Of a DNA stretch of 59,068 bases, positions 40,221-59,068 are shown in pieces. Numbering within the stretch: the first letter of the stretch is position 1; each line of letters begins with the position of its first letter. The DNA comes from an uncultured Clostridia bacterium (GTDB taxonomy: Bacteria > Bacillota > Clostridia > Christensenellales > CAG-917), in NCBI GenBank assembly GCA_947629635.1, contig CANREO010000001.1, forward strand, positions 1-59,068, in the 5' to 3' direction. The position numbers and the translations under genes were made by a program. Under the pieces are notes generated by a model. It was not told the DNA's origin and did not search any database. It saw nothing but the letters and a program-made list of their open reading frames with translations.

Positions 40221-40227
40221 ATCGTTT

Positions 40228-40381: not shown

Positions 40382-41290
40382 TCACAACATAAGCTCGCCC
40401 GGGGTGATGAATACATATGTGATGAGAGCAAGGAAACCCGCCAGCAAGACCAAGTGGAGTATATATATAATCAGGGCGTGTCTGCCGATAAAGCAAACGG
40501 GTTTATTCCATTTGCCGTTCAGGCGCGGCAGCAACGAACGACGGTCGCCGTAGAGGAAAGGCGCGATCGCCACACCGGCGAAGTAGTACGCCGCATGAGG
40601 AATGATCGTAAACAGATCGCCGGGAGAAAACTCGTTCTGCCTGTAAAATGGGGACGGATTTCCGTAAAAATCTTCGGTCGGGAACACGATCCCGAAAAAT
40701 TTAGGCGTTGTGGGCGGCGGCGTGTAGCAGAAATATAAAATGAGCACAATGCCTATTATCCCCACGCTGCATACGGATATGCTTCGGCTGTCGCCTCTGC
40801 AAAGAAACTCTGTAAGGGCGTACAAAAGGATACAAAACGCCAAGAAGTTGAGCACACCGAACATCACGGTTATTCCGCTTATGCCGAGTACTTCTTCTCC
40901 GAAAATCGTGATTATGCTGTAAACGGTGGCTATCAGCCCGAGTTGGGCTCCGCGCTTCAAATTGGAGCGAGAAAGCGTGCAGGATATGCCGGAGATCGAA
41001 AAAAATACAAAAAGAACGACATTATGCGCTGTTTCCCACTCTTCGCTGCCCATCCACTCGTAGCAAAATCTGCTGAAAGCGTCGCCTTTGCCCATATAAT
41101 ACCAATTGTTGCCGAACCAACCGTAACTGAAGACAACTATCAGCATGGTGAGATGGTCGAGTACCATGAGGAGGACGCAAATTCCGCGCAGAAAATCAAG
41201 CTCCCAAATGCGTTGAAATTTTTGATGAAGATATCGCCTTTGGAGCTGAAGGGGGATTTCTCCGTAGCTATATGGCAACTTTGCGTTCAT
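40382..41290 (-). CDS. DUF1624 / heparan-alpha-glucosaminide N-acetyltransferase-like membrane protein
   Basis: RIWELDFLRGICVLLMVLDH N-terminal signature. Polytopic. Confidence 0.7.
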   Translation of the reverse strand: MNAKLPYSYGEIPLQLQRRYLHQKFQRIWELDFLRGICVLLMVLDHLTMLIVVFSYGWFGNNWYYMGKGDAFSRFCYEWMGSEEWETAHNVVLFVFFSISGISCTLSRSNLKRGAQLGLIATVYSIITIFGEEVLGISGITVMFGVLNFLAFCILLYALTEFLCRGDSRSISVCSVGIIGIVLILYFCYTPPPTTPKFFGIVFPTEDFYGNPSPFYRQNEFSPGDLFTIIPHAAYYFAGVAIAPFLYGDRRSLLPRLNGKWNKPVCFIGRHALIIYILHLVLLAGFLALITYVFITPGELML

Positions 41291-41678: not shown

Positions 41679-41707
41679 TTGACAAAGACGGTATAGCGAT
41701 TTATAAT
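41679..41707 (+). promoter_or_regulatory. consensus sigma-A promoter of the giant ORF
   Basis: TTGACA 41679-41684, exactly 17 nt of spacer, TATAAT 41702-41707. The intergenic region is AT-rich. Confidence 0.65.
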
Positions 41708-41769
41708 TGATGCGTATAATAATCTACGCATATGCGCGTAAGCACATATACGCAGATTTGGAGGGAATT

Positions 41770-44700
41770 ATGAGAAAGCCAAAATTTGCGGTCGTGCTGT
41801 TGCTTTGCTTGGCGGTGCTGCTCACAGTAGTACTTGCCGCTTGCGGCCCGATTGAAGACCCTTCGGGAGAATTGCCCGATCTGTCCAATCCGGGAGAAAG
41901 CAACACTCCGCCCACCGTTGACTCGGGGACGCTTATTTCTTCGCAGCAGGCTTGGAATCTGATAAAAGATGCCGCTTATGCAAGCTCCGCCGAGATCAAG
42001 GACGCGAGATATATCCGCTTTGACACATCCTTTGTGCTGGGTTATGCCAAGGATGATTACAAGAGCGTAGTCGTATTGCGAGTGGCCGGTGATTTCGACA
42101 CGACGCCTCCGACGAGCCAAAGCGTCGACAGCAGCGAGATGTTGCTTGAACTGAGAAGTTTCGCAAAAGACCAGATCGAGGGCGTCGGTAGCGAAGAACT
42201 GTCATATATGGTGGCGCAGGGCGAGGGCAAATTGCTCGTCGGAGTATATTATTACGAAGGCAAAATCGTAGCGGACCTGAGAGGACTCAAGCGCGACGCC
42301 GGCGTACATATTCTTTACACCGAAAATATCAATCTCACCTCATTTGCGGATAAGTTGGACGATATGCTTCAACAGTTGAACATATCGGAGCTTGTCTTCG
42401 AAGATCTGTTCGGATACAATCTCGGAGGACTGGTCGAGTCCCTCCTGCATCTCAATATTGTCGATTTGACGATTGAAGATATCCTTTTGAACATCGTTAT
42501 GGCAAACGCCAAAGCGCGCGTCATTGACAACGGCAACGGCAGCAGCACGGTCATTATTCCTTGCGATCTTTCCCTCATCGCCGGGATACTTCCGCTTTTG
42601 GACGGCGTCATTCCCGAAAATATAATTCAATTGGTAAACAGCGTCGTCGGTCTCGATTTGGGCAAACTCGGCTCGCTCGCCGGTATGGCGCTTTGCATAG
42701 AGGCGAATTTGCAAAACGACGGTTTGAACGATAAACTTGTCGGCATTTCGACCGATATCGACCTCAATTTCAATTCCGGCAACAACCAAACTTTGTTGGA
42801 TAAATACGGCGCATTCCAAAACGACGTAGGCATAGAGCTCGGCTACTCAAAAGCTCAATTCGTCGGCGCGCCGGAGCTTGACGTGGTGGGCATGCTTAAA
42901 GCCCGTCCCGAAGCAAGCGGCTCGAATTTCTACAACGTTGCACAGACTGCGACTCGCTATTCCATTCTTTCATTCGAGGGATCTATAGGTTTGACCGTCG
43001 ACCTCGCCGAAAGACAGATAGTGCCGCAAAATGTCATAAATTCATTCGGCACTTACCTCAATGGACTCATCACAAACAGCAAACTGAGCGAAAAACTTCT
43101 TGAAATCATCGAAGCCACTCTTGCAAGAGAGGATCTGTTGCATATAAAACAGAGCAAAGTTCAACTTACGCTCAATATCCAAGCGCTCATCAACACCCAA
43201 AAACCGAGCGAGACGAGGATAGTGGTCGAATTGACTCAGAGCAACGGCAGAGTTTTGCTCGGCGCATATTACAGGGCGGACGAAAATGCCCTTTACCTTG
43301 AGGCAGGGGGGCTCGCCGGCGCCGACGGAACCAAGTTTAAGATCGCCAACTTTGATATTTTCAAAATAGTAGACGACCTTACGGATAAGGCTTTCAACGC
43401 GATCCTGGGAGCAATAAACAGCTTGGGCGGCGAGGCCAAGGCCCAATATGAAGAAGGATTGGCAAGCGGCGCTATCGTGAGGCAATACTCCGCGATCACG
43501 GCGGACGACGGCACTCAAATAGGCGATACAATCGGCCTTATACAAGCGATAATTGACAATATCGATCTTGTCAAAGACGGCAATATTTTCAATATCAGCC
43601 AGATCAAGGTGACGCTGACTCAAGATATCCTCAACTATATCTTCGGCCTTGTGTTCACGGGCAATTTGTCGGGGCTTGAAATACCTATTGTAGGCGAGCC
43701 CACCATCACGTATAACAACCTCGGCGTGGGCGAAAATAAGACTTTGAACATCAGCCTCAAGTTAAGCGACGATCCGTCCGAGGAGCTGTTGGGACTCAGC
43801 ATAGACGGACAATTGAAATTCGGCTCCATTACCGATGAGAACGCTTTCAGAAGTAAATTTGCTACAAGAAACAGCAGAGCGACCGATTATTTGTCCATTA
43901 TGCAGAACGGACAAATAAATACGGAACTTTTGCATATCGACGTGACAGCCGGATTGGAAATCGACGTCAGAGCGCTCGAGGGCGTGCTCGGCACTTTGGG
44001 CATTGACATCAAAGATTTGGCGATAGGCGACAATTTCAAAGGGCTGCTTATCAACATATTGCTCGAACTCGGCAACATAGACGGCGGCTTGAAACTCGAC
44101 GTGGACGCGCAAATCGACTTGTCGGGCGGCGCGAATGTGGAATCTTTGCTGAATTCCTCCGCGAAGTTGGTCATAAGCAAAGTGACCGACGATTCGCCCG
44201 TGCTTTCGATATATCTGCAGAACGGCGATCTGTATGTCGACGCGCATTTGCTTTGCTTGAATGTACAAAAAATCAAGATAAATTTGAACGATATCATAAA
44301 TAAGTTTGCTAAGCCTACGTCTGAGGACACGGCTTATGTGGCGGAAGAACCCACGCCTACGGACGGCAAAGATAACCTTGCAAACATAGTCGGTGTGTTG
44401 CTCAACGCGATCGACAATATCGAAATAAGCAGCAAGGCATTGTCGCTTGCATTCTCCACAGCGGTATTGGACGATATTTTGAAGGCCATAGGCACAGAAT
44501 CATTGGAAATTTCCTTTGACAGCACAAATCTCGAAGGCGGCATCAGAATAGGCATCCCCAACGGACTCAGTTTGCCCGATCTGAGCCTCGGCGTATTCCT
44601 CGCAGTGGGCGACAACGTCGATTTGGACGTGTCGCTAGGCGGTTTGAGCGTTGGATTGCATGAGGAAAAGAAAACATATTTGAGGGAAGAAGAAACAGCC

Positions 44701-47700
44701 CTTTATACGGAGATCTTGCGCCAACCTTATCTGTCTCTGGATCTCACCATGGGCTTGGATTTCAATGCCGACGAAGGCAGCACGGATATGGAATACGGCA
44801 TGATAGGCACGCATTGGAAGTCCGGTGAAAACTATTATGAGTTGACCGATCCGCAGCACCCTGTCCCGAGCGATTATTACGGCTTGTATTATTATTGCGA
44901 TGAAGACGGAGTTTATCACGAGGCAAATTACAATCTCACGACGCTGTATTTCGGCAGCGAAGTGCAGATAAACTATGAGTTGAGGCTTGCGGGCAGACTG
45001 GATCTGTCTCCGCTTGTGGCTTATCTCATGGGGGATAACTCCATTGTCACGAGAAATAACAATTCGGAACTCTCTCTCGAACTTGTCGGAAAGAAGTTCG
45101 GCGAGCAAGAGAAGAAATTGATCGGCATCTATTATACGGGTGAAGCTTTGTACTTGGATCTGAGCAATTTCGGATTTAACAGGGTCACGGCGGACATAGA
45201 TCTATTTGGAATAATTCTCGGCTTGCTCACAAAGGACAGCACGGTGGTGCTCAATTATGACGTAGGCGCAAGTTCCGAGGCCATGGTCGCCGACGCCGCG
45301 GCGTCGGATGAAAACACAAAGCGTCAGCTTGCATTGTCTATCGTAGCTTTGCTCACTTCATCCAACCTTTACGTCGAGTTGACTCAAGGTCTTGTGACGA
45401 CGTTGTTTGAGTTGACCGGCATTGACGCGACCAATATCACGGCGTGGCTTGACGTCGCATGGGATGAGCTGGAAAATCATGACGATAAGCCTTTCCGTCT
45501 GCATGCCGCGATCAACAACGCCAGCAACGAGCCGATAGGGCAATTCGAGTTGTACGCAAGTAAAATCGATATCACCGCCGGCGGCGCGCTTGAACAGTTG
45601 AAAGTTATGGACGGCGAGACGGAACGTCCGTTGAGAGAATATTTGAACGACGGCGAAAAGAATGACTATACCGAAATTCAGCTGTTCAATCAATACGGCG
45701 ATCTGACCATACCCACCATATATGCTTCGCTTGAAGGCACCATTTCCATGGGCGCGACAGAGAGCGACACTTGGGATATCGGCTCGTGGATAGCGGCGGT
45801 ACTTACGGGTATAGATAAGACGATTGAAAACGAGCGACTCGACTCATTCGTCAATAAATTGATGTTGCAACTCAACACTCCCGTTGCGGCGGAGAGGGAA
45901 CTCGGTTTCCGCATTGCGCTGAATTTGCGTCTCAACAACGATTCGGCGATAAATGTGTTGCAAAACGCAATATTCACGGAAATAGACAGACAAAATATTG
46001 CAAAATACAGCGAAGTATACAAACTTGTAGGCACCAACTATAAGCAGCTTACGGCGGAAGAGAGGACGACATATCTCGATACGATATATCTTAAGGAATA
46101 TATCTCCGGCGGAATAAGTTTGACGGAAGTCACTCAAGTGGGATATACGGGCGACGCGTACGTATTGCTTGCCGACGGCAATTATGCCAAGGTCTCGGTG
46201 ACGCAGGACAATATGGGCGATTTTGCCGAGGATAGGTTGTTTACGACGGCAGCGGTGACGGACATCGAATACATATTGTCGCACTCCGACATCGCAATCG
46301 AGATATTCAATACCAATATCGCGGAAGCAAGCGCGGAAAATATTATTTTGGGCTTACATTTGGTGTACACCGGCGACAGTCTGGGTTACAGCGCCAGCAC
46401 ACTGTATTTGGACCTGAGAGACGACTTCCACCTCTCGTTTGCAAATCTTGACCTTGCCAAACTCATCGGATCTTTGATGAATCCGTCAAAGGATAACGGC
46501 ACCGACGCACCGGCAGCGGCGACAGCCGCGGAGACTAGAGCGTCTTCGTCTACAGACGCAAACAACGGATTGCTGGGTACCGTATTCGGCTTGCTCGGAT
46601 CGTTTATAAGCAGCGTGGGCATGGACAGCAATTATGCTAAAGTCAATATTGCCGAGGGCCTTGTTGCGGTAGTGCTCAATATGATCTTGGGCGCGAAGAT
46701 AAACCCCGAAAAGTTTATCCGACTCAACTCAGACGACAGCTATCTGAGCTTTGCATGGGAATACAATTTGCAGTTGCAACTTGCGATAGATCCCATATAT
46801 TTGGGCATAGAAATAAGCAAGATAAGTTTCAATATCGGCACGAATACAGGCGTATTGCCCGATGATTTCGACCCGTCGATCTACACGGGCATAGAGAAGA
46901 TGGACAACATTTCCGTAGACCTGCAGCTCGACGCGGATCTGCAATTGAAGGGGCAGGACGAGGAGATACGTCTGGAGGATTATCTTGACCTGTTTGTTGC
47001 GGATATCGGCCTCAAACTCGGCATTGAACTGAGCGAGACGATAGAGTACAGCCTCAGCCTCAATGTAGGCACAAATCTTGTGTTGAGCGATCCCGACAAC
47101 ACCGAGATCATACTTTCGCTCGTCAATAAGATGACAAATGAAAATGTGCTCGCCATCATCGTCAAAGGGCCCAACATTTACATTGACTTCGGCAAGCTCG
47201 CAAGTCATGCATTCTACATTACGGGCACCGAAATAGCGGATCTCATCTGCTCTTCCATAAGCAATTTGCTCAACAGCGCGCAAAGTTCCATGGGACAGGG
47301 CTCAGGCGAGGCGCAGATGGCGGCAAGCGGAATATCCTCCGATATGACGGTAGAGGATGTGATGAACGTCGTGCTAAACATCGAGTCGGGCAGGATAGGA
47401 CTGCTTGTCACTCAAAACGTGCTGGTCGGACTTATAGCCGCACTTACGGGAGGCAACTCGATATATGTAGAGATAGGTGCGGACGACGTGTATGACGACG
47501 CGTACAGCGAGAGATTCGAAAAGAACTCTTCAGGTAAATTCGAGCCGAGCGTAGAAGGCGCTTTTGTAAAAACATATCTTGTGAACAAAGTTAAGGCGAC
47601 AGCGCTCGAAAGCAAGGAAGGCGCAGAGCAAGTTTACATCGCAACGTCTGCCGGCTACGTGCTTGTCGATCCGGCACTCATCTCGGACGGCAATGTTACA

Positions 47701-50700
47701 TTCTATTCGCTGGATCTCGGCTATACCGTGGAAGAGATACTTGAGAAGATAGATCTGGGCATATCCGTCAAAGCGGAGTTGCAGCTCAATCCGAGCATAG
47801 CGATAGGTATCGAACTTGACAGCAAACTGCTTGCCGTCGGCTTGAACATTTCCACGGTCAATGTCGCCACCGGCACCGACAACGATGCGTACAGAAGGAT
47901 ACATAAGCTGATAGATGACGCCATTTCCGTCAAAGACGCAGTGCCTTATACCGTCGAAGATCCGACAAAGGGCGACTATTACTATAAACTCGATGACGGC
48001 AGCTTCGTTAAGGCCGGCGAGTTTGATGCAGACAGTCAAACGAGAGCGGACGACGTTGTCTACGAGGATCGTTTCGAAAGACATGACGACCTCAGTATAA
48101 TCACACTCAATTTGAGTCTGGTGCTTGACTACAGCGCAAGCGCCACATATGTCTATGTGTCCAACAACGAGGCGTTGAACGCCTACGATCCGATGGACAG
48201 ATATTCATATAATGCTTCCGACGGAAGATTTGTCAAAGATCCCAACGGCCGCTATGTGCGCGACGGGTTTGCATTTGACGATACTATCGAAGCATTGCTC
48301 AACATACCCACGGTGAAAGAGGCGCTTGGTGGGATCCTCATCCCGGTGGTGCATATGTCCACGGAGGGCGGCGAATTTATCGGCTCCACAACCAAACTGC
48401 CGTTGAGCGAAGCGCTCAGCCGTCTCGGCCTCAACTTCATGATTTCGGATATGATGGACGACGGCGTCAAGTTGGACCTTGTCGTCAAGCTCGATCTCGA
48501 AAAGCTGGGATTGACGTTGACCGACATTAACAGCATAAAAGAATTTATAAATAAATTAAGTAACAATATTAAAAACAAAACAGTTGACGTCAAAAACCTG
48601 GTCGACGCTATGGAAGTGGGTCTGACCTTAGACTTCACCTATGAAGATCCGAATGAAGACGTAAAAATTTCCGTCTATCTCATCGAAAGCATCGTCTATG
48701 TTGACGCAAGCGGAGTAGGCTTGCCGCGCATCAGCTTCAACCTGTTCGATTTGATAGACGCCTTCACAGCCGTCACGGGAGGAGCGCAGTCGGAAGCTCA
48801 GATGGCGGCGGGCAATCAAACGTCTACATCATTTGTATCCTTGTTGAACGCGGTCGTATCACACATATTGATCAGCGCAACGGATATAAGCGGTCTCGAA
48901 GCGCTGAGCATCTTCTTCAAACCGGATATGTTCAAGAGTCTGCTGACCATCCTTACAGGGCAGAATTTCACATCGGAGATGCTTGATTTCACCGAAAACA
49001 GCGGCATCTTCCTGCGCCCCGGCGGAACGATGGACAGCTTGTTGTCGCTTGGATTGCTTGTCGAACTTGCCAATAAGAACGACCCGATCGAAAGCGAAGA
49101 CGGAGAGGTGACCCCGTTTACGTTGAAACTCGATTTGGGGCTTGCGGCGAACCTCGGATTTGAAAATAGCGAGGAATACGAGTCTTTGCTCGATCCCGAT
49201 GAAAGAGCTGATTTTATAGACTTCTTGACCTATATCGAAAATATTGTCAATATCGTAAACGGCTATGAGAACGAAAGTTACGTACGTGCGGAAAAACCGA
49301 TCGGCGACGGTAGCTTGTATTATGTCTTTAAGCCCGACGAAAACGGCAATTACGTGACGGCTGTCGGAATGTTCCGTCCAATCAACGACGGAGAAGTCGT
49401 CGCTGCCGGCAAGCAGAGATACCGTCGCGAATATGCAAAATTTGTCGGTGACAAGATCAGCATAGTGGAATATTTGCCCGCGGACGAGAGCGCAGACGAA
49501 GCAAATCTGTTTGCGTATGACGCAGAGCAAGACATTTATGTCCGAGTAGCCGATTATAATGGCAGCGACGAGAGACGCTTTGTCGAGCATGAAAAGGAAA
49601 GCATAGGACCAAACGACGCGGCGTTGTATAACAAGCAGGGCGTGCCCACATACACCGACCAATATATTTCGTTGTCGGTAGGCGGACTGATATATCTCAA
49701 CTCGTCAAGCGTGGAGACTTACAACCTCGGCGGACTTGTAAGCAATCTGTTTGGCGACATGCTTATAGAGTTGCAGACAAAATCCGTCTTCAACGGCGGC
49801 ATAGGTCTAAAGGTCTCCGCCAACGTGGATCTCGCTTCGTTAGACTTAAAGGCGCTCTTCGGCGGCACATTTAGCGACTTCCTTGCAAACAGCAATCTCG
49901 ACAGAGTAGAGCTTGCATTGGAGTTTATAGAAGTGTCCGAGGACGGTCATTTTGTGACATATTCCGACGGCTCGGACAAAGTGCTGGGCGGCATGTATCT
50001 CACCGGCGATACGCTGTACTTCGATATGACCGGAGTCGTCGAGACTGCCGAGACGTACGCGCGTATTGATGACTTTATGAGTTTTGCCAGAAAGGTCGCG
50101 GGACTTATCGACGGACTTACGAAAAAAGACAACACGGGCAACGACGCAACAGGCCAAGCGATGGCGGCTGCCGATAATCCGACAAACTATGCCACAGCTG
50201 TCAGAAACGCGATCATTGCGCTTGTGTATTCGGACGAAGTGTTCCAGTTGCAACTGACGCGCGCGCTCATATCTTATATTTTCTCTACGCTTATGCCGGA
50301 TCTTGGCAGCATCGACGAGATATTTGACGTCTTGTCACTGTCGCTGGGCTTAGAACACGGGAAAGAAGTGTTCAGAAAGATCGAAGATATGACAAACGAA
50401 GAGGAAAAGGCAAAATTCCTCGATGAAAACGATTCCGCAAACTATTGGAACGACAGATATACATATTATAAAGATCCTACCTATCTGCCCGTTGCGAACG
50501 ACGGCTATTATGCCGTTAGGACGGACGGCGGTTATGAGTATTTCGATATAGCCTCCGCGAGGCTGTTTACAATGGACGGCGATAATTATAAATATGCCGA
50601 AACTTACAGCGCGGAAGGCGGCGCGACATATTTTGTGCGCGACGGCAAGACATACAGGCAAGTTGAATTTGTCGCGAACAGTTATTATGCGGCAAATGTA

Positions 50701-53700
50701 AACGGGACGATCAAGTTCTATCAAGTGCCGTTTACTCAACTGTATACGGAGGCTGAAGGCTCATACACGGCGGCGGACAAATACGACGCGGAAGGCGGCA
50801 CGGCATACTATGTGCGCGAGGGCAATTCCTTTGTCAAAGTGTTGTTCGGAGCAAACGGCAAATCCGTATCCGGCAGGACCAGCTATTACGCGTCCTTCGG
50901 CGACGGAGACGACGCGGCGAGATTGCCTATCAACAGCTATGCGCTCTATCATAAGAAGCCCGTTGTTGAGGACGGAGTCGTAAAATTGAGCGAGGGCGAA
51001 ACGGACGACGATTTTGTACAAACCACGTTGTTTGTCAATGACGAAAAGGCGCTCGGCGGCTTCTATACATATGTCAAATACAATGACACGTACTACAAAG
51101 TGACCGGGCTCGAGACGCTGAACGTAGGCTATGTCAAAGATATCAAGGGCGATTATTATCGCACTATAGACAGCTATTCGAGGACAGACGAGTTCAGACT
51201 GGCGTTGGACCTCAGCGTGGGTTGCCTCAGCTTAGGTTTGCGCCTTGGCAATCTGAGCGTCGGACTCGGCGGCGGATTGCAGCTGTTGCCTGATTACTTG
51301 CGCGACGGAAAGGCGCACTCATATATCGACGAGTATGGCGCCGAACACAAATATACGACGAATATGACGGATGAAGAGAAAGAGCTTGTCGAGGATATCC
51401 CTGTCAATCCCTTCTATGACACCGTTATCGATTTGAGTTTCGCCGTAGAACTTGACTTCGGCATTACCGAAGGGAGGCTTGACTTCGGCGAAATTTTGAG
51501 TGCGATCGTAGGCAATATTGCCGGCATAAACGTCGAGATGCCCACAACTACGAAGGGATACTCTTCGGCGCACTTCAGACTTGACGCCCACGTCATGCTG
51601 GATATGTATGATCTCGGCGAGTCCGAGCTTTCGATCGAACTGGTTCAAGTGACCGAAACGGGTTATGATTCGCTTGTGATAGGCGCGTACTATATCAACA
51701 GCAACCTCTATCTCGACCTGTCCAACATGTTCAACATACCCAAGATGGCAATTACGGACCTCAGCATAACAGGTTTGTTGAATAAGGCGTTCAATACGGA
51801 CTTGTTCGAAGGAGGATTGTTCTGGGCAGACGCCGCAGAGCAAATGGCCGGAGACGCTATGATCGCAGCCGCCGACGCGTCAAATTCCGACGCAAGCACA
51901 GGTGCGGCTGGCGACGTTGACTTTACAAACAGAAACCTGGCTCTTGCAGTGCTGTTTGACAAGCATATGGTGGCAATTGCGTTGGGCGATCTGTTCTTCG
52001 ACACGGTGCTTGAGTATATCCCCGAAGATCTGCTCGGATTTGACCTCAAGCAACTGTTCTATGACGAGATAAACGGCAATTTGCAAATCAAACTCGGCAC
52101 CGAGAAGGATATCGACCTCGAATTGAAGGCGTCGTTGGGCCTTGAAGGCGGCAGATATACTTATTACACCGCGGCGACGAAAGACAAGGACAGCGCCAAC
52201 GAGGAAGCGATCAAAAACAGCCTTGCAAGCGGCTACAACACGGCGCAATATTATGTGTTTAAGGCGGAAAAGACGGCGACGGATATCGACGGCAATTTGT
52301 CCTCGCAGGACGGCTATTACACAATCAACGAGGCCGGCGGATATGCGCGTGCCATCAGACCCGACGAAATTACGGACGGTATGACGCTTTACACGCGATA
52401 CAGAGTGGCGCTGGAGCAGGGCGAGTTGTGCCTTGTGGAAATGGTTGACAATGCCGCAGGCAACGGCATGGAACTTGCCGGAAAGACTTTCAAGCTCGAA
52501 GAGGGCGACAAGATATATCTATACGCTCCGGGCGCGATCGCCAATAAGTCGTTTGTGGGAGACGGCGGATCTTACGATATGAATATGGATCTGACGCTTG
52601 CCTTGCACAACCTCAACCTAGAGTTTACAAATTCACGTTCTGCGGTGCTCAGCGGCGAGGAAATTGCGGAATACACGGCGTTTGACAACCTTGACCACAT
52701 TGTCATCAAGGATACGCTCGATCTGACGGCTATGTTCAAAAACGGCAGCGACATCGACCTCAGCGCAGTGCTTACGGCTTTCCTGCCCGGCTTGCCTACA
52801 GAAAATCTGCTTATGCTCATTGCGCAGGCGGACAACGGCGGCGACGTCATCCGCAATTTGCGCTTGAGCGTAGAGGCGGAAATTTTGAGCATGGCGCTGA
52901 TCAACTATGCGCGTACGAACCTATTCAATATCGATAACCCCAACGGCGAACTGGACATCACATACATTTTCAATCTGATTTCGGAGTTGATCAAAAACTT
53001 CAACACATTGGATCTGGGCAGAGTGCTTTCGGATCTTCTCGGCTTTGTCAACCTGAAAATAGTTTTGCAGACGAAGGGCGGCAATGATTCAGACTATCAC
53101 GACATGCTCGGCCTGTATCTTGTGGGCGGTAAATTCGAAAAGTTGACGGAAGAGGATATCGACCCGGACGGCGACAACTATATTGCGCCCGAGGACAGAT
53201 ATGACCATTATTATCAAGCTTCGTACGGCAACTTCTACTATTTGGACGGAAAATACGAGCTTATAGGAAAAGACACCTCGTTTACGGGCGTCAGATATTC
53301 TTATGATCCGAGTTATTGCTACAAGAACCCCAACGGCAACTATAAGCGCGTAGGCGGCGGCCTGTATGTGGATCTGAGCTATTTCAACATCCCCAGCATC
53401 AATGTGCCAAGCTACATGATAGAGGATTTGATCGTCAGCAATTTGTCCACAAGCGGCTCATCCGAGGCAATGATCGCCGAGGGCGAAGCGGAGGGACAGG
53501 ACTCGATCTTCCCACTTATCAAGGACGATACGATAACGGGTTATATAAGAAGCTTTGTGTATGGGGTGAGGATAACATCCGCATACGTCAAACTGCTTGT
53601 GCAACCCAATTACATCAATCAATTGCTCACGCTGTTGCTCGGCGAGGACAGCGCCATAACATTCGATGAGGATCTGTTTACAAACTACTCCAACCTTGCG

Positions 53701-56700
53701 CTGTACTTCGATAGGACGATGCACAACTATGAAAAGGTAGACGACCTCATCAACAGTATGTCATTGCTGTGGATGGCATCTCCCACGGAAGAGGAACAGG
53801 CGAGATACAGAGCGGAGATAGAAGATCTGCTTGGTAGCTCCAAGTACAGATTCCAACTCAAAGAGTATAAGGGCAAGGCGGATTCCAGCGAAAACGGCTT
53901 GTACTATATCGACGATAACGGCGCATTCGTTCATAAGAACGAGATGGGCACGGCGGAGCGCGCTGCCTATGACGAACTTGTCAACGAAGGCAAAAAGGCG
54001 TATTACGACGTCGTAAGTGTGCCCACATATATAAGGTTGCTCGATCCGACGACCAAAGCGCCGACAAACAATTTCGTGTTGTATTCGACAGCAAACAAAG
54101 TGCAGCTTGCAAACGCCGAGGCTGACGACAGGCTTGCGCAATTCAGCGTGTCATTGCCCAAATTGTACACTGTCACGGATAAGATAAGCGACGACACAAA
54201 GAACGTCGAAGTAAACGGCACGATTTATACCCCGACCAACCCCGAATTGTCCTACTCCAAGAGGCTTACCACGGAAAATCCGCTTTTGAGTTTGCAGGTA
54301 TTCCTGTGGGATTATTCGCTTAAGCTCGACTTGCAATTCCCACAGTTCGAAGTGGTCGAATTCAAGTATCTGACAGGCACTGAAGCGGCAGAGCAGATAG
54401 GCGAGATCCCCGACGGCGTGCGCTATGTCGATATGGCGCAGGACTTCTACAACAACGAGGACAAGACTACGCTTGACGCGTGGGTGGCCGACTATTATAG
54501 AGAAGGCGCGTTCAGCAGCGACGAATATGAGAAGAATCCGCGCTTCTATAAGAACAGAAACAACTATTATCCGATAGACAAAACTACCTTGAGCGTATAT
54601 AACGAGGGCAAATACGAGCTCGCAGTGAAAGACGGAGATCCGTTCCCGGATATACTCAAGGAGATCGAGGAAAACGGCAAAGAATATTATGTCTACGTAG
54701 GCTCGGGTTACGAGTTGTTGCAAAGGGCTTACATTTACAAGCACAACAGATACGACAGCGTCTACAAGAGGTTGCTCGCGCCCGAAGAGAAGAAAGCGGA
54801 CGGATCGGAGTACGGCCCCGACGAATACTACGTTCGCGTGCAACAGGACAGCGGCGTGCAAGCGCCCGATTTCGGCGATCCGCTGTATGATGATTATGCA
54901 TACAAAGAGTACGTGCCCGTAAACGAGTTGTACTATCTGTCGCTGGATCTGCGTGCGCACATTTCGATAAACTCCGGCAAGATATACTTTGCATATGCGG
55001 ATTATCTGGCACTTTACAACAGTTTGCATCCCGAAGAGCACGTAACGGAATTTACGAAAGAGCAACTGAAAGGGATCGCATATAAGATATTCCAAGGCAA
55101 CTATGTCGCGCTTTCGGACACGGACGACTTCGAAGCGTTGCGCGACGGCGGCAATTTGTACGTGTGGGTCAACTCTTCACTCGGTCCCGAGTACGGCATA
55201 GACGAGGCGTTGAGCGACGTGCTCGGCGGCATACTGGGCAATCTCAAGGGCAGATTCCAGGTGTCGGACAACATGACGTTGAACATCTATTTGTCATTAA
55301 GGCTCAACCTCACGTTTGAGATCTCGCTCGTGCCGGCGAAGTTGATAATCCGCGACCTCGACGTAGCGATCGACGGTTGGGGCGAACAGAACGATATGCT
55401 GGAGGACGGCACGTTTATCGATCCCGACACGAGAAATAACTACGCAGAGAACGAGTTGCTTGACGGTTCGCTTACGCACTTGTTCGGCATCTACTACAGC
55501 CATGACCGCAACACGGGCGAGGCCGGGTTGTACGTCGACCTCGAGTGGCTGCTCGGCTCGGACGCCAAGATAATGATAGACCTCAGCGATTACACGCTCG
55601 AGGACGTGATAAACGGTCAATTCGGCGACACGGAAGCGCAGAGTGAAGCGATGATGGCGGCGGACGGCATGAACGTACAACAATCGTCATCTGCCGTAAG
55701 CCTGTATGTCAACATATTTACAAACGCGATAGCCGTCAACATGACGAGCGGCTTTATCAAGGCGCTCATCGGAGAGCTGTCGCCGGAATCGACTTTGGGC
55801 GATCTCATCCCCAACTTGAAGATATATGCAAAACTCGATCTCAACCCCTATGATCTGACGGTGGGCGCGTTGCTGTTCAACGAGGACGGCGACAGACCCA
55901 TGCTTGACGTCAGCATGACGTTGGAGGGCTTAAACGGCGACAAGGATTCGTCCAGGATCACGTTTGGGCTCGCGTCCAAAGTCAACGCGGAGCAGAGGCC
56001 CGAGGATCATGTCTTCTACTTTGCAAACTTCTATAGCGACAAAGACGGCAACTATGGCAAGAACGGAACGGATAAGGAGTACGTGAGGCTGTACAAGGAC
56101 GCGGAAGGCAAGGAGTATGTCGCTGCGGAAGACGGCTCGTATATGCTTGACGAAAGCGGCGTCATAGTGGACGCGACGGAGGGATACGAAGGGCAGAAGT
56201 ATGCCCCGTACAACGGGCCGACGGCGCGCTACAGCAAGGCGGAAGGAGAAATGAAGCCGATAGTCGGCTTCAGATACGGTCTCGGCTCGCCGTACGACGA
56301 ATATGGCGACGACGTCTACACATTGCATCAAGGCGAATACAGGACGGTAGATTATCTCCTGCCCACGCTTGGCAGCAGCAAGTTCAGAGACATATACAAC
56401 AAGGAAGCGTTCAAGGACTTCACGGGTTGGGTGTACGCAATCAGAAATCAAGAGTACGTCGAGCTTGAAAAGGCAACTCTCGAAGGCTTTACCGGCGAGG
56501 GCAACTTGCAATATATCCTTGCAGACGACATCGACAGCGTGCTGACGGGTGGGCTTGCGACATTTAAGGAAGCATGGCTTGCGAAGGCGGTCGAAGTGGG
56601 CGGCAAGAAGTATTTGCCCGTAGACTTTGTATTGTCCGACGACAATACGACGATAGTCGGCATAGGCGACAAGGGCTACACCTCGCTGTACGACGCGGAT

Positions 56701-59068
56701 ATGGTGACGCCCGACGTCACGGCATACAAGCTTGTAAGCGACTTTACAAACTACAGCAAGGCGATCTCGCTCAACTTCAAAGATCTGCTTGACGGCAAGA
56801 AGATCGACATTAATGAGTTGCTTGGCGACCTCAAGTCCGTTGAAGCGGGCGCGAGACTGTCGCTGAACATCAAGATGTCGGATATCATCAATTGGACGTA
56901 TCAGATGACCAGGTTTGTCGGCGACGACAGCATTGCGGAATATCTGTACTTCCTCATTGCATCGCTTGAGGAGAACAGCCCGATGAACAACGAGCTGAAC
57001 CTCGACGCGGAGCTTCGCGTGTATCTGCCTCTTGCGCCTCTTGTCAACTACATCATCAACAAGCAGGGCGGTCTGCTGGACGCAATAAACGGCTTGGGCC
57101 TGTACGTGAAGTTTAGTTACGCCACGGGTCTGCACGACGATACGGCGACGTCCTACGTGCTTGGGCAGATAAGGGACGGCAAGCTGTATTTGCGCATAGA
57201 TCTGTCCAACTTCACAAAGGTTGCCGGATTTGGCGACTTCCTGTCATACATAGCGATAGACGGCCTGTCGCTGAGCAGCTTGATCGGCAGCTCGTCGCAA
57301 GTGTCATCGGACGCGAGCGTCGCGGCGGCTTTCGACGACGAACTCAACGATTACGGCATTGTTCCGTCTAACATTTGGCAGGTCATCAATGTGCTTTTGG
57401 GCAGATTGTTTGTGGCAAACGACTTCTTGACGGTGGGCCTTGGCGAGACGCTTATCGGCGACCTCATCGAGATGTTGTCGGAGTCCGAAAACGAAGTGAT
57501 ACAGGGCATCATAGAGTTTATGCCCAAGTTGTATACTTCAAACGGCAACGATACGAGCGGCATCACGATCAATCTGTACGGCGAATCGCCGTCGATCAAC
57601 CTCAACATCGGCCTCAAGGCAGGCGGAATGTACTACCTGGAAGTCGGAGAATACAACTCCATGTACGGCGCGACGGGCAACTATTTTGTCGGAAGCGGTC
57701 AGCACAGAGATTGGGACGGCGAGCGCTTCCATCACGAAGATGGACAATATGTGCTTTGCAACGACGGCTCGAGATGCGACAAGGAGCATTACGTGCTGGT
57801 GATGACCGACGACTATGCGCTTATCAGCTATGCTTATCCCGATTGGCAAGGCGACACGTACGACTATAACAAAGATACAAACGGCTTCGACAAAAACGAG
57901 GGCGGCAGCGGTCAGTACATGAAACTGGGCGAGTTTGGCTTCGGCGCGCAGGTGAGCGACCTGCATGCGGCGATCAACCGCGACTTCACCGTGACGGACA
58001 AGGATATGTACGCTCTCATCCACAAGGACGCTGTAGGCGCGGACGAGCAAGGATATCTTATTGACGCGAAGGGTGCGCGCGTGCATGACCAGAGCGGAGC
58101 GGAGATGAAAGACCCGTACGTGAAGGCGGACGATCTGGAAGCTACGCTGGAGATGTCCATAGACGTCTCGCTGTACGGCGCGGGCGGAGCCGGCGACGAC
58201 AACGTCATCGACCTGAGCGAAGTGCTGGATCTGTTGCTGGGATTGCTTGCCCCCAACAGCGACCTCAACGGCAGCGTATTGCGCCTCAACATAGTCAACA
58301 AAGTGGGCAAAGACGACGGAGCCTTCCTCACTCTCGACCTCAAGTTGCACTTCAATTTGGCGACTTGGGACATAGACGCGAAGATAGAACTTATCAAGCA
58401 CAACCCTGATGGCAACGACACGTCGGTGCTTTTGGGCGTGTATCTAGACAAGACCGAAGATAAGGGCACTTCGCTTTACATCGACCTCGGCGGCTTGCTT
58501 GACAAGTCCGCAAAGATTGCAATAACAAACCTCAATATCGAAGGATTGCTGAAGGACAAGCTGGGCAAGCTGTTGTCATCGTCAAGCGCCGAGGACGCGA
58601 GTAGCGACGCCAGGATAGCGGACGGCAAAGACGTGCACGAGACGGTTGAAAAATTGATGAAGGACTATGCATACTTCATGCTGTTTGTCAATCCGCGCAA
58701 GATACTGCTTCAGTTCAACGCGGACCTCATCAATGTGATATACAAGAAGATACTTCAAGTGCGCGGTCAGGAGCCGAAAAACCTCATCCCCGACCTGGGC
58801 GACATACTGCTTATGCTGGACGCGACGGGCGGAAGGACAAAGCTTGGGCTGAACGTACGCTTGAGCGACGCATTCTATATCGCGCTCGACATGAACGTGC
58901 CTACGATTTCCAAGAGCTTTAACAGTGAGGAGTTCTGGGGCGATACCGATCTGAGTTTCAGAGAGGAAGGCACAAGCACGGGTTATATCCCGATGCTCGA
59001 TCTTGACCTCAACAGCGTGCTCAAGGGCGGCGAGACGGACATACTCGGGGCGCTGAAGATGCCTTCGC
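41770..59068 (+). CDS. giant lipoprotein, unknown family (3-prime end outside window; at least 5,766 aa)
   Basis: GGAGGG at 41760-41765 and ATG at 41770. Translation begins MRKPKFAVVLLLCLAVLLTVVLAAC-G (lipobox). The frame with positions congruent to 1 mod 3 has its last stop at 41704-41706 and none afterwards. I translated the first 7 sequence lines and more than 30 further lines spread to 59041 without meeting a stop. The track lists no plus-strand ORF in this frame, as expected for an ORF with no stop inside the window. Confidence 0.9.
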   Translation, partial: MRKPKFAVVLLLCLAVLLTVVLAACGPIEDPSGELPDLSNPGESNTPPTVDSGTLISSQQAWNLIKDAAYASSAEIKDARYIRFDTSFVLGYAKDDYKSVVVLRVAGDFDTTPPTSQSVDSSEMLLELRSFAKDQIEGVGSEELSYMVAQGEGKLLVGVYYYEGKIVADLRGLKRDAGVHILYTENINLTSFADKLDDMLQQLNISELVFEDLFGYNLGGLVESLLHLNIVDLTIEDILLNIVMANAKARVIDNGNGSSTVIIPCDLSLIAGILPLLDGVIPENIIQLVNSVVGLDLGKLGSLAGMALCIEANLQNDGLNDKLVGISTDIDLNFNSGNNQTLLDKYGAFQNDVGIELGYSKAQFVGAPELDVVGMLKARPEASGSNFYNVAQTATRYSILSFEGSIGLTVDLAERQIVPQNVINSFGTYLNGLITNSKLSEKLLEIIEATLAREDLLHIKQSKVQLTLNIQALINTQKPSETRIVVELTQSNGRVLLGAYYRADENALYLEAGGLAGADGTKFKIANFDIFKIVDDLTDKAFNAILGAINSLGGEAKAQYEEGLASGAIVRQYSAITADDGTQIGDTIGLIQAIIDNIDLVKDGNIFNISQIKVTLTQDILNYIFGLVFTGNLSGLEIPIVGEPTITYNNLGVGENKTLNISLKLSDDPSEELLGLSIDGQLKFGSITDENAFRSKFATRNSRATDYLSIMQNGQINTELLHIDVTAGLEIDVRALEGVLGTLGIDIKDLAIGDNFKGLLINILLELGNIDGGLKLDVDAQIDLSGGANVESLLNSSAKLVISKVTDDSPVLSIYLQNGDLYVDAHLLCLNVQKIKINLNDIINKFAKPTSEDTAYVAEEPTPTDGKDNLANIVGVLLNAIDNIEISSKALSLAFSTAVLDDILKAIGTESLEISFDSTNLEGGIRIGIPNGLSLPDLSLGVFLAVGDNVDLDVSLGGLSVGLHEEKKTYLREEETALYTEILRQPYLSLDLTMGLDFNADEGSTDMEYGMIGTHWKSGENYYELTDPQHPVPSDYYGLYYYCDEDGVYHEANYNLTTLYFGSEVQINYELRLAGRLDLSPLVAYLMGDNSIVTRNNNSELSLELVGKKFGEQEKKLIGIYYTGEALYLDLSNFGFNRVTADIDLFGIILGLLTKDSTVVLNYDVGASSEAMVADAAASDENTKRQLALSIVALLTSSNLYVELTQGLVTTLFELTGIDATNITAWLDVAWDELENHDDKPFRLHAAINNASNEPIGQFELYASKIDITAGGALEQLKVMDGETERPLREYLNDGEKNDYTEIQLFNQYGDLTIPTIYASLEGTISMGATESDTWDIGSWIAAVLTGIDKTIENERLDSFVNKLMLQLNTPVAAERELGFRIALNLRLNNDSAINVLQNAIFTEIDRQNIAKYSEVYKLVGTNYKQLTAEERTTYLDTIYLKEYISGGISLTEVTQVGYTGDAYVLLADGNYAKVSVTQDNMGDFAEDRLFTTAAVTDIEYILSHSDIAIEIFNTNIAEASAENIILGLHLVYTGDSLGYSASTLYLDLRDDFHLSFANLDLAKLIGSLMNPSKDNGTDAPAAATAAETRASSSTDANNGLLGTVFGLLGSFISSVGMDSNYAKVNIAEGLVAVVLNMILGAKINPEKFIRLNSDDSYLSFAWEYNLQLQLAIDPIYLGIEISKISFNIGTNTGVLPDDFDPSIYTGIEKMDNISVDLQLDADLQLKGQDEEIRLEDYLDLFVADIGLKLGIELSETIEYSLSLNVGTNLVLSDPDNTEIILSLVNKMTNENVLAIIVKGPNIYIDFGKLASHAFYITGTEIADLICSSISNLLNSAQSSMGQGSGEAQMAASGISSDMTVEDVMNVVLNIESGRIGLLVTQNVLVGLIAALTGGNSIYVEIGADDVYDDAYSERFEKNSSGKFEPSVEGAFVKTYLVNKVKATALESKEGAEQVYIATSAGYVLVDPALISDGNVTFYSLDLGYTVEEILEKIDLGISVKAELQLNPSIAIGIELDSKLLAVGLNISTVNVATGTDNDAYRRIHKLIDDAISVKDAVPYTVEDPTKGDYYYKLDDGSFVKAGEFDADSQTRADDVVYEDRFERHDDLSIITLNLSLVLDYSASATYVYVSNNEALNAYDPMDRYSYNASDGRFVKDPNGRYVRDGFAFDDTIEALLNIPTVKEALGGILIPVVHMSTEGGEFIGSTTKLPLSEALSRLGLNFMISDMMDDGVKLDLVVKLDLEKLGLTLTDINSIKEFINKLSNNIKNKTVDVKNLVDAMEVGLTLDFTYEDPNEDVKISVYLIESIVYVDASGVGLPRISFNLFDLIDAFTAVTGGAQSEAQMAAGNQTSTSFVSLLNAVVSHILISATDISGLEALSIFFKPDMFKSLLTILTGQNFTSEMLDFTENSGIFLRPGGTMDSLLSLGLLVELANKNDPIESEDGEVTPFTLKLDLGLAANLGFENSEEYESLLDPDERADFIDFLTYIENIVNIVNGYENESYVRAEKPIGDGSLYYVFKPDENGNYVTAVGMFRPINDGEVVAAGKQRYRREYAKFVGDKISIVEYLPADESADEANLFAYDAEQDIYVRVADYNGSDERRFVEHEKESIGPNDAALYNKQGVPTYTDQYISLSVGGLIYLNSSSVETYNLGGLVSNLFGDMLIELQTKSVFNGGIGLKVSANVDLASLDLKALFGGTFSDFLANSNLDRVELALEFIEVSEDGHFVTYSDGSDKVLGGMYLTGDTLYFDMTGVVETAETYARIDDFMSFARKVAGLIDGLTKKDNTGNDATGQAMAAADNPTNYATAVRNAIIALVYSDEVFQLQLTRALISYIFSTLMPDLGSIDEIFDVLSLSLGLEHGKEVFRKIEDMTNEEEKAKFLDENDSANYWNDRYTYYKDPTYLPVANDGYYAVRTDGGYEYFDIASARLFTMDGDNYKYAETYSAEGGATYFVRDGKTYRQVEFVANSYYAANVNGTIKFYQVPFTQLYTEAEGSYTAADKYDAEGGTAYYVREGNSFVKVLFGANGKSVSGRTSYYASFGDGDDAARLPINSYALYHKKPVVEDGVVKLSEGETDDDFVQTTLFVNDEKALGGFYTYVKYNDTYYKVTGLETLNVGYVKDIKGDYYRTIDSYSRTDEFRLALDLSVGCLSLGLRLGNLSVGLGGGLQLLPDYLRDGKAHSYIDEYGAEHKYTTNMTDEEKELVEDIPVNPFYDTVIDLSFAVELDFGITEGRLDFGEILSAIVGNIAGINVEMPTTTKGYSSAHFRLDAHVMLDMYDLGESELSIELVQVTETGYDSLVIGAYYINSNLYLDLSNMFNIPKMAITDLSITGLLNKAFNTDLFEGGLFWADAAEQMAGDAMIAAADASNSDASTGAAGDVDFTNRNLALAVLFDKHMVAIALGDLFFDTVLEYIPEDLLGFDLKQLFYDEINGNLQIKLGTEKDIDLELKASLGLEGGRYTYYTAATKDKDSANEEAIKNSLASGYNTAQYYVFKAEKTATDIDGNLSSQDGYYTINEAGGYARAIRPDEITDGMTLYTRYRVALEQGELCLVEMVDNAAGNGMELAGKTFKLEEGDKIYLYAPGAIANKSFVGDGGSYDMNMDLTLALHNLNLEFTNSRSAVLSGEEIAEYTAFDNLDHIVIKDTLDLTAMFKNGSDIDLSAVLTAFLPGLPTENLLMLIAQADNGGDVIRNLRLSVEAEILSMALINYARTNLFNIDNPNGELDITYIFNLISELIKNFNTLDLGRVLSDLLGFVNLKIVLQTKGGNDSDYHDMLGLYLVGGKFEKLTEEDIDPDGDNYIAPEDRYDHYYQASYGNFYYLDGKYELIGKDTSFTGVRYSYDPSYCYKNPNGNYKRVGGGLYVDLSYFNIPSINVPSYMIEDLIVSNLSTSGSSEAMIAEGEAEGQDSIFPLIKDDTITGYIRSFVYGVRITSAYVKLLVQPNYINQLLTLLLGEDSAITFDEDLFTNYSNLALYFDRTMHNYEKVDDLINSMSLLWMASPTEEEQARYRAEIEDLLGSSKYRFQLKEYKGKADSSENGLYYIDDNGAFVHKNEMGTAERAAYDELVNEGKKAYYDVVSVPTYIRLLDPTTKAPTNNFVLYSTANKVQLANAEADDRLAQFSVSLPKLYTVTDKISDDTKNVEVNGTIYTPTNPELSYSKRLTTENPLLSLQVFLWDYSLKLDLQFPQFEVVEFKYLTGTEAAEQIGEIPDGVRYVDMAQDFYNNEDKTTLDAWVADYYREGAFSSDEYEKNPRFYKNRNNYYPIDKTTLSVYNEGKYELAVKDGDPFPDILKEIEENGKEYYVYVGSGYELLQRAYIYKHNRYDSVYKRLLAPEEKKADGSEYGPDEYYVRVQQDSGVQAPDFGDPLYDDYAYKEYVPVNELYYLSLDLRAHISINSGKIYFAYADYLALYNSLHPEEHVTEFTKEQLKGIAYKIFQGNYVALSDTDDFEALRDGGNLYVWVNSSLGPEYGIDEALSDVLGGILGNLKGRFQVSDNMTLNIYLSLRLNLTFEISLVPAKLIIRDLDVAIDGWGEQNDMLEDGTFIDPDTRNNYAENELLDGSLTHLFGIYYSHDRNTGEAGLYVDLEWLLGSDAKIMIDLSDYTLEDVINGQFGDTEAQSEAMMAADGMNVQQSSSAVSLYVNIFTNAIAVNMTSGFIKALIGELSPESTLGDLIPNLKIYAKLDLNPYDLTVGALLFNEDGDRPMLDVSMTLEGLNGDKDSSRITFGLASKVNAEQRPEDHVFYFANFYSDKDGNYGKNGTDKEYVRLYKDAEGKEYVAAEDGSYMLDESGVIVDATEGYEGQKYAPYNGPTARYSKAEGEMKPIVGFRYGLGSPYDEYGDDVYTLHQGEYRTVDYLLPTLGSSKFRDIYNKEAFKDFTGWVYAIRNQEYVELEKATLEGFTGEGNLQYILADDIDSVLTGGLATFKEAWLAKAVEVGGKKYLPVDFVLSDDNTTIVGIGDKGYTSLYDADMVTPDVTAYKLVSDFTNYSKAISLNFKDLLDGKKIDINELLGDLKSVEAGARLSLNIKMSDIINWTYQMTRFVGDDSIAEYLYFLIASLEENSPMNNELNLDAELRVYLPLAPLVNYIINKQGGLLDAINGLGLYVKFSYATGLHDDTATSYVLGQIRDGKLYLRIDLSNFTKVAGFGDFLSYIAIDGLSLSSLIGSSSQVSSDASVAAAFDDELNDYGIVPSNIWQVINVLLGRLFVANDFLTVGLGETLIGDLIEMLSESENEVIQGIIEFMPKLYTSNGNDTSGITINLYGESPSINLNIGLKAGGMYYLEVGEYNSMYGATGNYFVGSGQHRDWDGERFHHEDGQYVLCNDGSRCDKEHYVLVMTDDYALISYAYPDWQGDTYDYNKDTNGFDKNEGGSGQYMKLGEFGFGAQVSDLHAAINRDFTVTDKDMYALIHKDAVGADEQGYLIDAKGARVHDQSGAEMKDPYVKADDLEATLEMSIDVSLYGAGGAGDDNVIDLSEVLDLLLGLLAPNSDLNGSVLRLNIVNKVGKDDGAFLTLDLKLHFNLATWDIDAKIELIKHNPDGNDTSVLLGVYLDKTEDKGTSLYIDLGGLLDKSAKIAITNLNIEGLLKDKLGKLLSSSSAEDASSDARIADGKDVHETVEKLMKDYAYFMLFVNPRKILLQFNADLINVIYKKILQVRGQEPKNLIPDLGDILLMLDATGGRTKLGLNVRLSDAFYIALDMNVPTISKSFNSEEFWGDTDLSFREEGTSTGYIPMLDLDLNSVLKGGETDILGALKMPS

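Follow-up and report, generated by a model that had tools for sequence, protein, structure and literature searches.

The 59,068-nucleotide (nt) contig CANREO010000001.1 of an uncultured Clostridia bacterium (assembly GCA_947629635.1; analysed over its whole length and hereafter called the window) ends within a reading frame of such length that it poses two questions: whether the frame is a gene at all and, if so, what its product does. We find that it is the 5′ part of the coding sequence of a giant lipoprotein (41770-59068, + strand), of which 5,766 codons are visible and which is colinear with a complete relative, P0017. On the sequences compared here, the product is a member of a genuine, conserved, and uncharacterized family of giant lipoproteins with a newly defined architecture. 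Our best explanation, in which we place about even confidence and which draws on sequence and modelling, is a very large extracellular lipoprotein that would form a long, segmented fibre or adhesin on the cell surface.

An open frame with a lipoprotein start

From ATG 41770, the frame runs through 5,766 sense codons with no stop in 41770-59067 and is still open at the contig end; the remaining five frames of 41770-59068 contain 51 to 339 stops each, and the chance of a stop-free frame of this length, computed from base composition, is ~1e-126. The nearest in-frame stop upstream is TAA 41704-41706. The start codon is preceded at 4 nt by a Shine-Dalgarno sequence, GGAGGG (41760-41765, +), and at ~60 nt by a sigma-70 promoter, TTGACA-17-TATAAT (41679-41707, +), that matches the consensus at 12 of 12 positions. 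At 41710, the frame has an additional ATG, just 3 nt beyond the -10 hexamer and, thus, probably upstream of the transcript start. Between promoter and ribosome-binding site, the 5′ leader also holds an 18-nt palindrome, CTACGCATATGCGCGTAA (41724-41741, +), flagged as a stem-loop, which could, to judge from its sequence, be an operator or an RNA hairpin.

The product begins with MRKPKFAVVLLLCLAVLLTVVLAAC followed by G, a lipoprotein signal peptide (aa 1-25; 41770-41844, +) laid out as MRKPK-FAVVLLLCLAVLLTVV-LAAC before the G: a basic n-region, a hydrophobic h-region, and a lipobox, L-A-A-C, matching [LVI][ASTVI][GAS]C. Cys25 is the predicted lipidated residue, and a lipobox is present in all relatives listed by N-terminus (for example, LVAC followed by N and LVGC followed by G). 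A Pro/Ser/Gly/Thr-rich tether, variable among relatives, follows at aa 26-55 (41845-41934, +). The visible protein is rich in Leu (12%), Asp (8.8%), Gly (8.3%), Asn (6.2%), and Tyr (5.8%), contains very little Cys (0.21%), and is strongly acidic (891 Asp and Glu versus 428 Lys and Arg). The signal peptide is its sole strongly hydrophobic segment, and we dismissed a transmembrane protein because no other such segment exists. An earlier note on this DNA, made by reading the letters, had described the open frame, the start at GGAGGG and ATG 41770 with a lipoprotein signal, and the acidic, Cys-poor composition, all of which agree with what we see.

The same giant gene, likewise cut by a contig end, is carried by an independent assembly, Logan DRR855138, whose contig was located through the neighbouring acyltransferase protein. 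Over the 11.4 kb of that contig compared, the two are 99.7% identical with no gap, and the differences within the gene (19 synonymous and 13 conservative nonsynonymous, where about 1:3 would be expected without selection) show, at the level of these two assemblies, that it is under purifying selection. Together with the improbability of so long an open frame and the existence of more than 25 intact relatives in independent samples, these results leave almost nothing of the reading that the frame is an assembly chimera or a pseudogene that is open by accident, which can draw on the truncation at the contig end and on one broken orthologue: in the closed long-read chromosome CP091723.1 (L004; 9953-23129), 3-4 frameshifts spread the orthologue over four reading frames. 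A short-read contig that is 96% identical to it (L005) is intact, so these frameshifts are most likely indel errors, and we dismissed a pseudogene on this account. The earlier note's reading of the frame as a gene is, thus, borne out by an indel-free second assembly and by complete orthologues. Because short-read assemblies truncate the gene and long-read assemblies frameshift it, it is systematically under-annotated. In this, it resembles the giant genes described from metagenomes, which are also very large, mostly unannotated frames that assemblies fragment; full-length examples are reported to have numerous transmembrane regions and most to carry SecA/DEAD-like domains (bioRxiv 10.1101/2023.11.21.568195), whereas the giant lipoprotein family is without either.

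A family built on a fixed array of divergent modules

Current domain and structure libraries recognize almost nothing in this protein. Pfam searches with ten overlapping 800-aa tiles of the visible protein gave no match at E ≤ 1 that approached the cutoff, and NCBIfam searches with tiles gave none. Searches of the PDB returned nothing relevant, either by sequence (aa 1-5000) or by profile with the module alignment (A2) or a deep N-terminal alignment (A5), and a 72-sequence family profile retrieved only ribosomal protein eS6, at the chance level (E 0.3). The earlier note's statement that the visible part belongs to no known family is, therefore, upheld by all of these searches. RHS/YD, haemagglutinin, collagen, SLH, and CWB repeats likewise had no Pfam matches in the window protein or in those C-termini of relatives that were searched.

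When 1.84 billion cluster representatives were searched exhaustively with HMMER, 63 relatives were recovered, nine of which are 6,529-7,924 aa long; a word-index search found two N-terminal fragments only and nothing for aa 4,467-5,766. Family members are unnamed or called "hypothetical protein" in public sources (e.g., MDE6059947.1), and we found no prior description of the family in the literature. The seven members of 7,286-7,924 aa are colinear over essentially their whole length, and the two of ~6,500 aa align in parts; among the six members of 7,286-7,924 aa closest to P0017, five share a conserved C-terminal end. P0017 itself (7,924 aa) is complete on a 31-kb contig, which also contains its stop and the next gene downstream, and P0038 and P0035 are also complete. 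A scan of one genome per species yielded 19 loci at 37-42% N-terminal identity, most of them labelled Christensenella sp., uncultured Clostridia or Clostridiales, or Firmicutes CAG:475 or CAG:238, with a few otherwise named bins; the titles of several point to human gut studies, and one is a closed 1.65-Mb chromosome. On these sequences, the family is confined to a group of uncultured, Christensenellales-like gut Clostridia (labels Christensenella sp., Clostridiales, and CAG:475). It is conserved end to end and almost wholly invisible to the libraries named above, and, by estimated size, a gene of ~26 kb would occupy ~1.6% of the related closed chromosome of 1.65 Mb.

The earlier note had seen no recognizable repeats in a sequence that is not of low complexity, and in this it missed an array of 14 ancient modules. 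BLASTP self-comparison of the window protein shows almost no internal repeats, and the modules were recovered only by motif anchoring and iterative hidden Markov models (HMMs). A hairpin motif, G-x-Y-Y ... L-Y-x-D, occurs 13 times, most copies being followed by a linker of the type S-E-A-x-M/T-A-A; the linker-to-linker units measure 288-752 aa and are alignable along their length at 15-24% identity. By a family-iterated HMM, the window protein has 13 cores and each of the complete relatives 14 (rarely 15); the visible protein, thus, consists of 13 very divergent modules and the start of a 14th. Module number and order are kept even between relatives at ~22% identity, so the array is ancient and fixed rather than a recently expanding repeat.

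All cores lie on the + strand. Those of modules 1 to 3, found with the family module HMM and modelled with AlphaFold, are at aa 103-196 (42076-42357), 465-600 (43162-43569), and 774-893 (44089-44448). Motif anchoring and HMMs placed the next ten: module 4 at aa 1068-1203 (44971-45378; linker SSEAMVAD), module 5 at aa 1495-1625 (46252-46644), module 6 at aa 1762-1879 (47053-47406; linker GSGEAQMAAS), module 7 at aa 2263-2374 (48556-48891; linker QSEAQMAAG), module 8 at aa 2679-2835 (49804-50274), module 9 at aa 3267-3379 (51568-51906), module 10 at aa 3748-3943 (53011-53598; linker SSEAMIAE), whose core is split by a Tyr-rich insert, module 11 at aa 4510-4666 (55297-55767; linker QSEAMMAAD), module 12 at aa 5076-5222 (56995-57435), and module 13 at aa 5521-5633 (58330-58668). 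The start of module 14 (58669-59068), truncated by the contig end, is placed by the spacing in the closest clade.

Over the 186 module instances of 14 proteins, which in effect define a new domain family, the best-conserved positions are in the hairpin (Tyr 76%, Tyr 86%, and Asp 79%), and the linker motif S-E-A-x-T/A-A-A/D-D is equally conserved (Glu 58%, Ala 91%, and Ala 66%). In its S-E-A-x-T-A-A-D form, the linker motif is embedded in Gly/Ser/Ala-rich sequence. The modules also carry large Tyr/Asp/Gly-rich insertions that increase in size toward the C-terminus and vary between species. An aromatic motif, [YFW][YF]-x-[DE][DN]G-x-[YF], has ~10 sites at aa 1040-4790 versus ~1 expected; this ~10-fold enriched hairpin motif (YY-x-DDG-x-Y) is nearly confined to the variable inserts between module cores. 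It resembles choline- or cell-wall-binding repeats, for which the Pfam models gave no detection.

What lies beyond the contig end can be estimated from relatives. The window protein is colinear over aa 1-5,724 with aa 1-5,414 of P0017. An exact-match scan of metagenome contigs with the last 44 nt of the window found nothing that would extend it, and a protein-level scan with aa 5,300-5,766 found 11 loci of the closest clade at 37-42% identity, mostly in human-gut assemblies. In nine of the 11, the open reading frame continues for about 3,570 aa (3,551-3,675) from the equivalent of window aa 5,300 to its stop; in four (L026, L031, L034, and L036), the 12th, 13th, and 14th module cores are followed by ~2,850 nonmodular residues. 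Modules 7-14 are seen in the fetched loci of this clade, the 14th core lying ~230-280 aa after the 13th. From these lengths and this order, the window covers modules 1-13 and reaches into the beginning of module 14, and the full protein is probably ~8,900 aa long, with ~3,100 aa missing from the window.

The nonmodular C-terminal region that follows the modules in relatives (2,200-2,850 aa) has no internal repeats by BLAST and no PDB match by profile search with a C-terminal alignment. It does appear to contain immunoglobulin (Ig)-like sequence: a Big_4 match reaches 23.1 bits in L034 (Pfam cutoff, 22.1) and is subthreshold in L026 (18.2 bits) and in one P-clade member (E 3.3e-4), and a local HMM iterated from the Big_4 match finds four to eight divergent Ig-like copies per protein, none of them farther than ~2,300 aa from the C-terminal end and most within the final ~1,500. 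The earlier note's exclusion of Ig repeats is, thus, right for the 5,766 visible residues and does not extend to the C-termini of relatives. The note had reported LPXTG absent from the visible part; in 14 relatives, full-length or C-terminal, the last 80 aa contain neither an LPXTG-like motif nor a hydrophobic segment, which leaves the N-terminal lipid as the sole predicted anchor and the Ig-like array as the free end. Between module 14 and the Ig-like repeats, P0012 (aa 5924-5942) and P0017 (aa 6116-6134) share a conserved hydrophobic stretch, LLIFLYTT[IL]LSL...; by sequence, it is not strong or consistent enough among family members to count as a transmembrane helix.

A proposed surface fibre and its competitors

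For the segmented surface fibre or adhesin proposed above, the steps would be as follows. The preprotein would be exported by Sec, receive diacylglycerol, and be cleaved at Cys25, as its signal sequence indicates, and the protein would be tethered by its N-terminus alone to the outer face of the cytoplasmic membrane. A Pro/Ser/Gly tether would lead into a stalk of 14 nonidentical alpha+beta modules. In each, helices would pack against a sheet of ~7-13 long antiparallel strands, and flexible Gly/Ser/Ala linkers, which bear the conserved S-E-A-x-T-A-A-D, would connect one module to the next. By its presumed geometry, such a beads-on-a-string stalk could extend for tens of nanometres and cross the wall, its modules decorated with Tyr/Asp/Gly-rich hairpin inserts that differ between species. 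Beyond the window, if the architecture of relatives applies, there would be 2,200-2,850 nonmodular residues with 5-8 divergent Ig-like domains of the Big_4 type and a conserved C-terminus; this part would face outward as the binding end, and the function might be attachment to glycans, host material, or partner cells.

Most giant secreted proteins of bacteria are surface fibres or adhesins, and strong acidity with very few Cys residues is found in many extracellular surface proteins. A surface fibre or adhesin, already among the roles floated in the earlier note, is the best supported of them: it accommodates the single N-terminal lipid anchor, the segmented modules and flexible linkers, the distal Ig-like array, the acidity, and the lack of any further membrane segment. 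Consistent with it are the perfect promoter and ribosome-binding site, the lipobox in the relatives listed, and the lack of any other transmembrane-like segment in relatives. Several observations pull the other way. The 5,766 visible residues contain no adhesin, lectin, or wall-binding domain (Pfam and NCBIfam), and the detection of Big_4 in relatives is marginal (by a single bit, as given above: 23.1 versus 22.1). Typical adhesin stalks have similar repeats in variable copy number; here, the modules are ancient, nonhomogenized, and fixed at 14, which suggests that each has its own role. Furthermore, the sole significant fold match is to a lipid-carrier barrel, that of ApoB-100, with weaker ones to MTP, lipovitellin, and LolB.

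The giant surface protein is, as a general kind, already known. Ebh, SiiE, and LapA/MpIBP-type proteins, among the giant fibres or adhesins of Gram-positive and Gram-negative bacteria, offer the closest comparison: like the protein described here, they are secreted, thousands of residues long, acidic, and poor in Cys, with a modular stalk and Ig-like domains (seen here in the C-termini of relatives). Unlike them, it has an N-terminal lipid anchor and no LPXTG, transmembrane, or type I secretion system retention module, and its stalk modules are 300-750 aa long, alpha+beta, and of a type not in Pfam. Where typical stalks comprise many similar Ig or FIVAR repeats of ~100 aa, its modules are 15-24% identical and fixed at 14. 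The sequence comparison, thus, suggests that what is new within this theme is a reversed polarity, with an N-terminal lipid anchor and a free C-terminus, and a new stalk module.

The family would be a concrete candidate for a surface structure that mediates attachment or aggregation in these Clostridia. The Christensenella-like group draws interest for its links to host phenotypes and its partnerships with methanogens. Cultured Christensenella flocculate and host Methanobrevibacter smithii within the flocs (PMC7002349), an analogy that makes aggregation attractive as a function for the family, as a lead only.

The reading that fares next best, which we regard as unlikely, is a chain of lipid-binding barrels, in which the modules are helix-plugged open beta-barrels like LolA/LolB or the N-terminal barrel of ApoB, MTP, and vitellogenin, and the 14 tethered modules bind, store, or pass hydrophobic molecules (host or dietary lipids, sterols, or lipoglycans) at the cell surface. 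It arises from structural modelling. An AlphaFold model of module 6 built with an alignment of 12 paralogous modules alone was discarded (predicted local distance difference test [pLDDT], 45), and a model of aa 52-900 (modules 1-3) built with 50 family sequences reached a mean pLDDT of 75.7 and a predicted TM-score of 0.59, with 34% strand and 32% helix. Modules 1-3 contain 7, 13, and 12 strands, respectively, plus helices; confidence falls at the junctions of modules 2-3 and 3-4 and in one segment inside module 3, and the two intermodule linkers are of low confidence or weakly helical. Among the 50 Foldseek matches to the PDB that were listed, the sole one at E ≤ 0.001 was the N-terminal beta-barrel of ApoB-100 (9bd8_A; E 1.7e-6, probability 0.99), aligned at TM-scores of 0.12/0.19 and a root mean square deviation (rmsd) of 27 Å. 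Weaker matches were to Staphylococcus aureus SAOUHSC_02783 (probability 0.77-0.85), LolB (9tpm; 0.75, TM-score 0.21), lipovitellin (0.69), MTP (0.66), AttH, and DUF1329 (4z48), with porins at a probability <0.2; a Foldseek search of viral structures found nothing.

With TM-scores of 0.04-0.38 and rmsd values of 12-27 Å overall, these matches indicate a local resemblance of curved amphipathic sheets with helices rather than a fold assignment, and porins are listed among them, too. The 12-13 strands with helices in modelled modules 2 and 3 can be set beside the ApoB barrel, which has 11 strands and three helices, one of them plugging the core (PMC11839476), and a fixed number of orthologous modules fits a machine better than a spacer; the related genome, moreover, is small (1.65 Mb). 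Counting against a lipid carrier are the distal Ig-like array, which would be unexpected in one, and the failure of Vitellogenin_N to give a Pfam or PDB profile match and of LolA and LolB to give a Pfam match in the visible protein or a PDB profile match. The likeness to ApoB-100, MTP, and lipovitellin lies in ~11 long antiparallel strands with helices and in 9bd8_A being the best Foldseek match; it comes with no sequence similarity and with TM-scores of 0.11-0.19, and here there are 14 tandem copies in a bacterial lipoprotein, in which none of the helical-bundle, C-sheet, A-sheet, or beta-belt domains of ApoB, MTP, and vitellogenin is recognized. LolA and LolB share with the modelled modules an open antiparallel sheet with helices and give weak Foldseek matches (TM-scores 0.21-0.23), but they have no Pfam match here, and each is a lone protein of ~200 aa in the periplasm or outer membrane of diderms, in contrast to a tandem array in a Clostridial genome. 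Judging by its SipL and RsgI genes and by the lack of any outer-membrane gene within the 59-kb window, the host looks like a monoderm Clostridium.

We keep a lipid role alive because of the 14 fixed, nonhomogenized modules and their resemblance to lipid-carrier barrels, and if that fold resemblance were true, the protein would give a monoderm a means of handling lipids that is without precedent. The boldest form of this reading takes the 14 modules for helix-plugged lipid-binding barrels of a new class and the protein for an extracellular equivalent, in a Gram-positive bacterium, of ApoB/LolA-type carriers; it could act as a surface "bucket brigade" or reservoir and use its linker motif for docking or processing. 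This is a speculation that we rate as improbable. If true, lipids from the host, the diet, or the envelope would be captured and moved across the wall of a gut Clostridium with a small genome.

A third reading makes the protein an envelope scaffold or coat that runs along or within the wall, as a substitute for an S-layer or as a molecular ruler, with no adhesive role. Across the family, the modules keep their number and the proteins stay colinear from end to end, the gene is single copy at a conserved chromosomal position behind a strong promoter that looks constitutive, the protein is very acidic, and its upstream neighbours act on glycans (an acyltransferase, GH20, PIG-L, and a GH127-like protein), with a Mem_trans permease and a Band_7 protein downstream. 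We nevertheless consider a scaffold rather improbable, given that no SLH, CWB2, or other wall-binding domain occurs in the window protein or the relatives searched, that there is no sign of self-assembly, and that the synteny may merely reflect the gene order of a narrow clade.

Very unlikely, in our judgement, is an extracellular polyprotein, in which S-E-A-x-T-A-A-D would be a protease site that releases ~14 separate alpha+beta proteins and a C-terminal Ig-rich fragment and leaves the first module alone lipid anchored. It would explain why few features of the modules are as well conserved as the linker motif (Ala 91%, Glu 58%, and Ala 66%) despite its Gly/Ser/Ala-rich surroundings, and it agrees with the low-confidence or weakly helical state of both modelled linkers; however, no protease gene adjoins the giant gene in any locus viewed, and the motif could just as well serve as a docking strand or cap a helix.

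The earlier note had also offered a bridge-like lipid-transfer protein of the TamB/AsmA/VPS13 type, and this we dismissed. Like AsmA, TamB, and YhdP or VPS13 and ATG2, the protein is very long, beta-rich, and membrane-tethered at its N-terminus, but it has a lipobox in place of a transmembrane helix, and its 32% helix and low-confidence linkers between modules do not resemble one continuous groove. The ten tiles gave no Pfam match at E ≤ 1 to AsmA, AsmA_2, TamB/DUF490, Chorein_N, or VPS13 families and no NCBIfam match, TamB, VPS13, and ATG2 are not among the 50 Foldseek matches listed, and the context is Clostridial. Of the note's lipid-related suggestion, the groove type, thus, falls, and a general lipid role retains the fold match to ApoB-100.

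Gene neighbourhood

Divergently oriented from the giant gene is a gene for a membrane acyltransferase (40382-41290, - strand; Pfam match to HGSNAT_cat/Acyl_transf_3), which is the immediate upstream neighbour, no other conserved gene intervening, both in the window and at the 16 genome loci whose flanks are long enough. In L023 and L024, GH20 and PIG-L genes intervene and it stands 5-6 kb upstream; it is missing at L025, the most distant member. The acyltransferase is, thus, a conserved neighbour of the giant gene; we dismissed it as an obligate partner because of its absence next to that most distant member. Further upstream, a block that encodes a BD-FAE esterase, a DUF2207_C-like protein, a 197-aa frame, and a GH127-like protein (36067-40298) is kept in ~11 related loci, and in the window, the GH127-like gene and the 197-aa frame are inverted relative to the others. 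On the downstream side, each of the three complete loci (L023, L024, and L025) has a Mem_trans permease after the giant gene; in the two that extend further (L024 and L025, whose members share ~22-25% identity with the window protein), it is followed by genes for a Band_7/zinc-ribbon protein, a hypothetical protein of ~365 aa, DUF1858, and Cupin_2.

The rest of the window is an ordinary segment of Clostridial chromosome, with tRNA synthetases, SipL, an RsgI-like anti-sigma factor, PFOR, glmU-pth-mfd, and collagen-like and condensation-domain proteins. The SipL/SPOCS-domain protein involved in spore-coat morphogenesis (3830-5335, +), the RsgI-like anti-sigma factor (5382-6938, -), and a 913-aa protein with a Listeria-Bacteroides repeat (8247-10988, +) suggest a Clostridial lineage that either sporulates or has spore-forming ancestors. 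In the interval between mfd and the esterase gene lie the genes for the collagen-like protein, of 341 aa and with collagen triple-helix repeats (33374-34399, -), and for the condensation-domain protein, which is stand-alone and of 461 aa (34477-35862, +).

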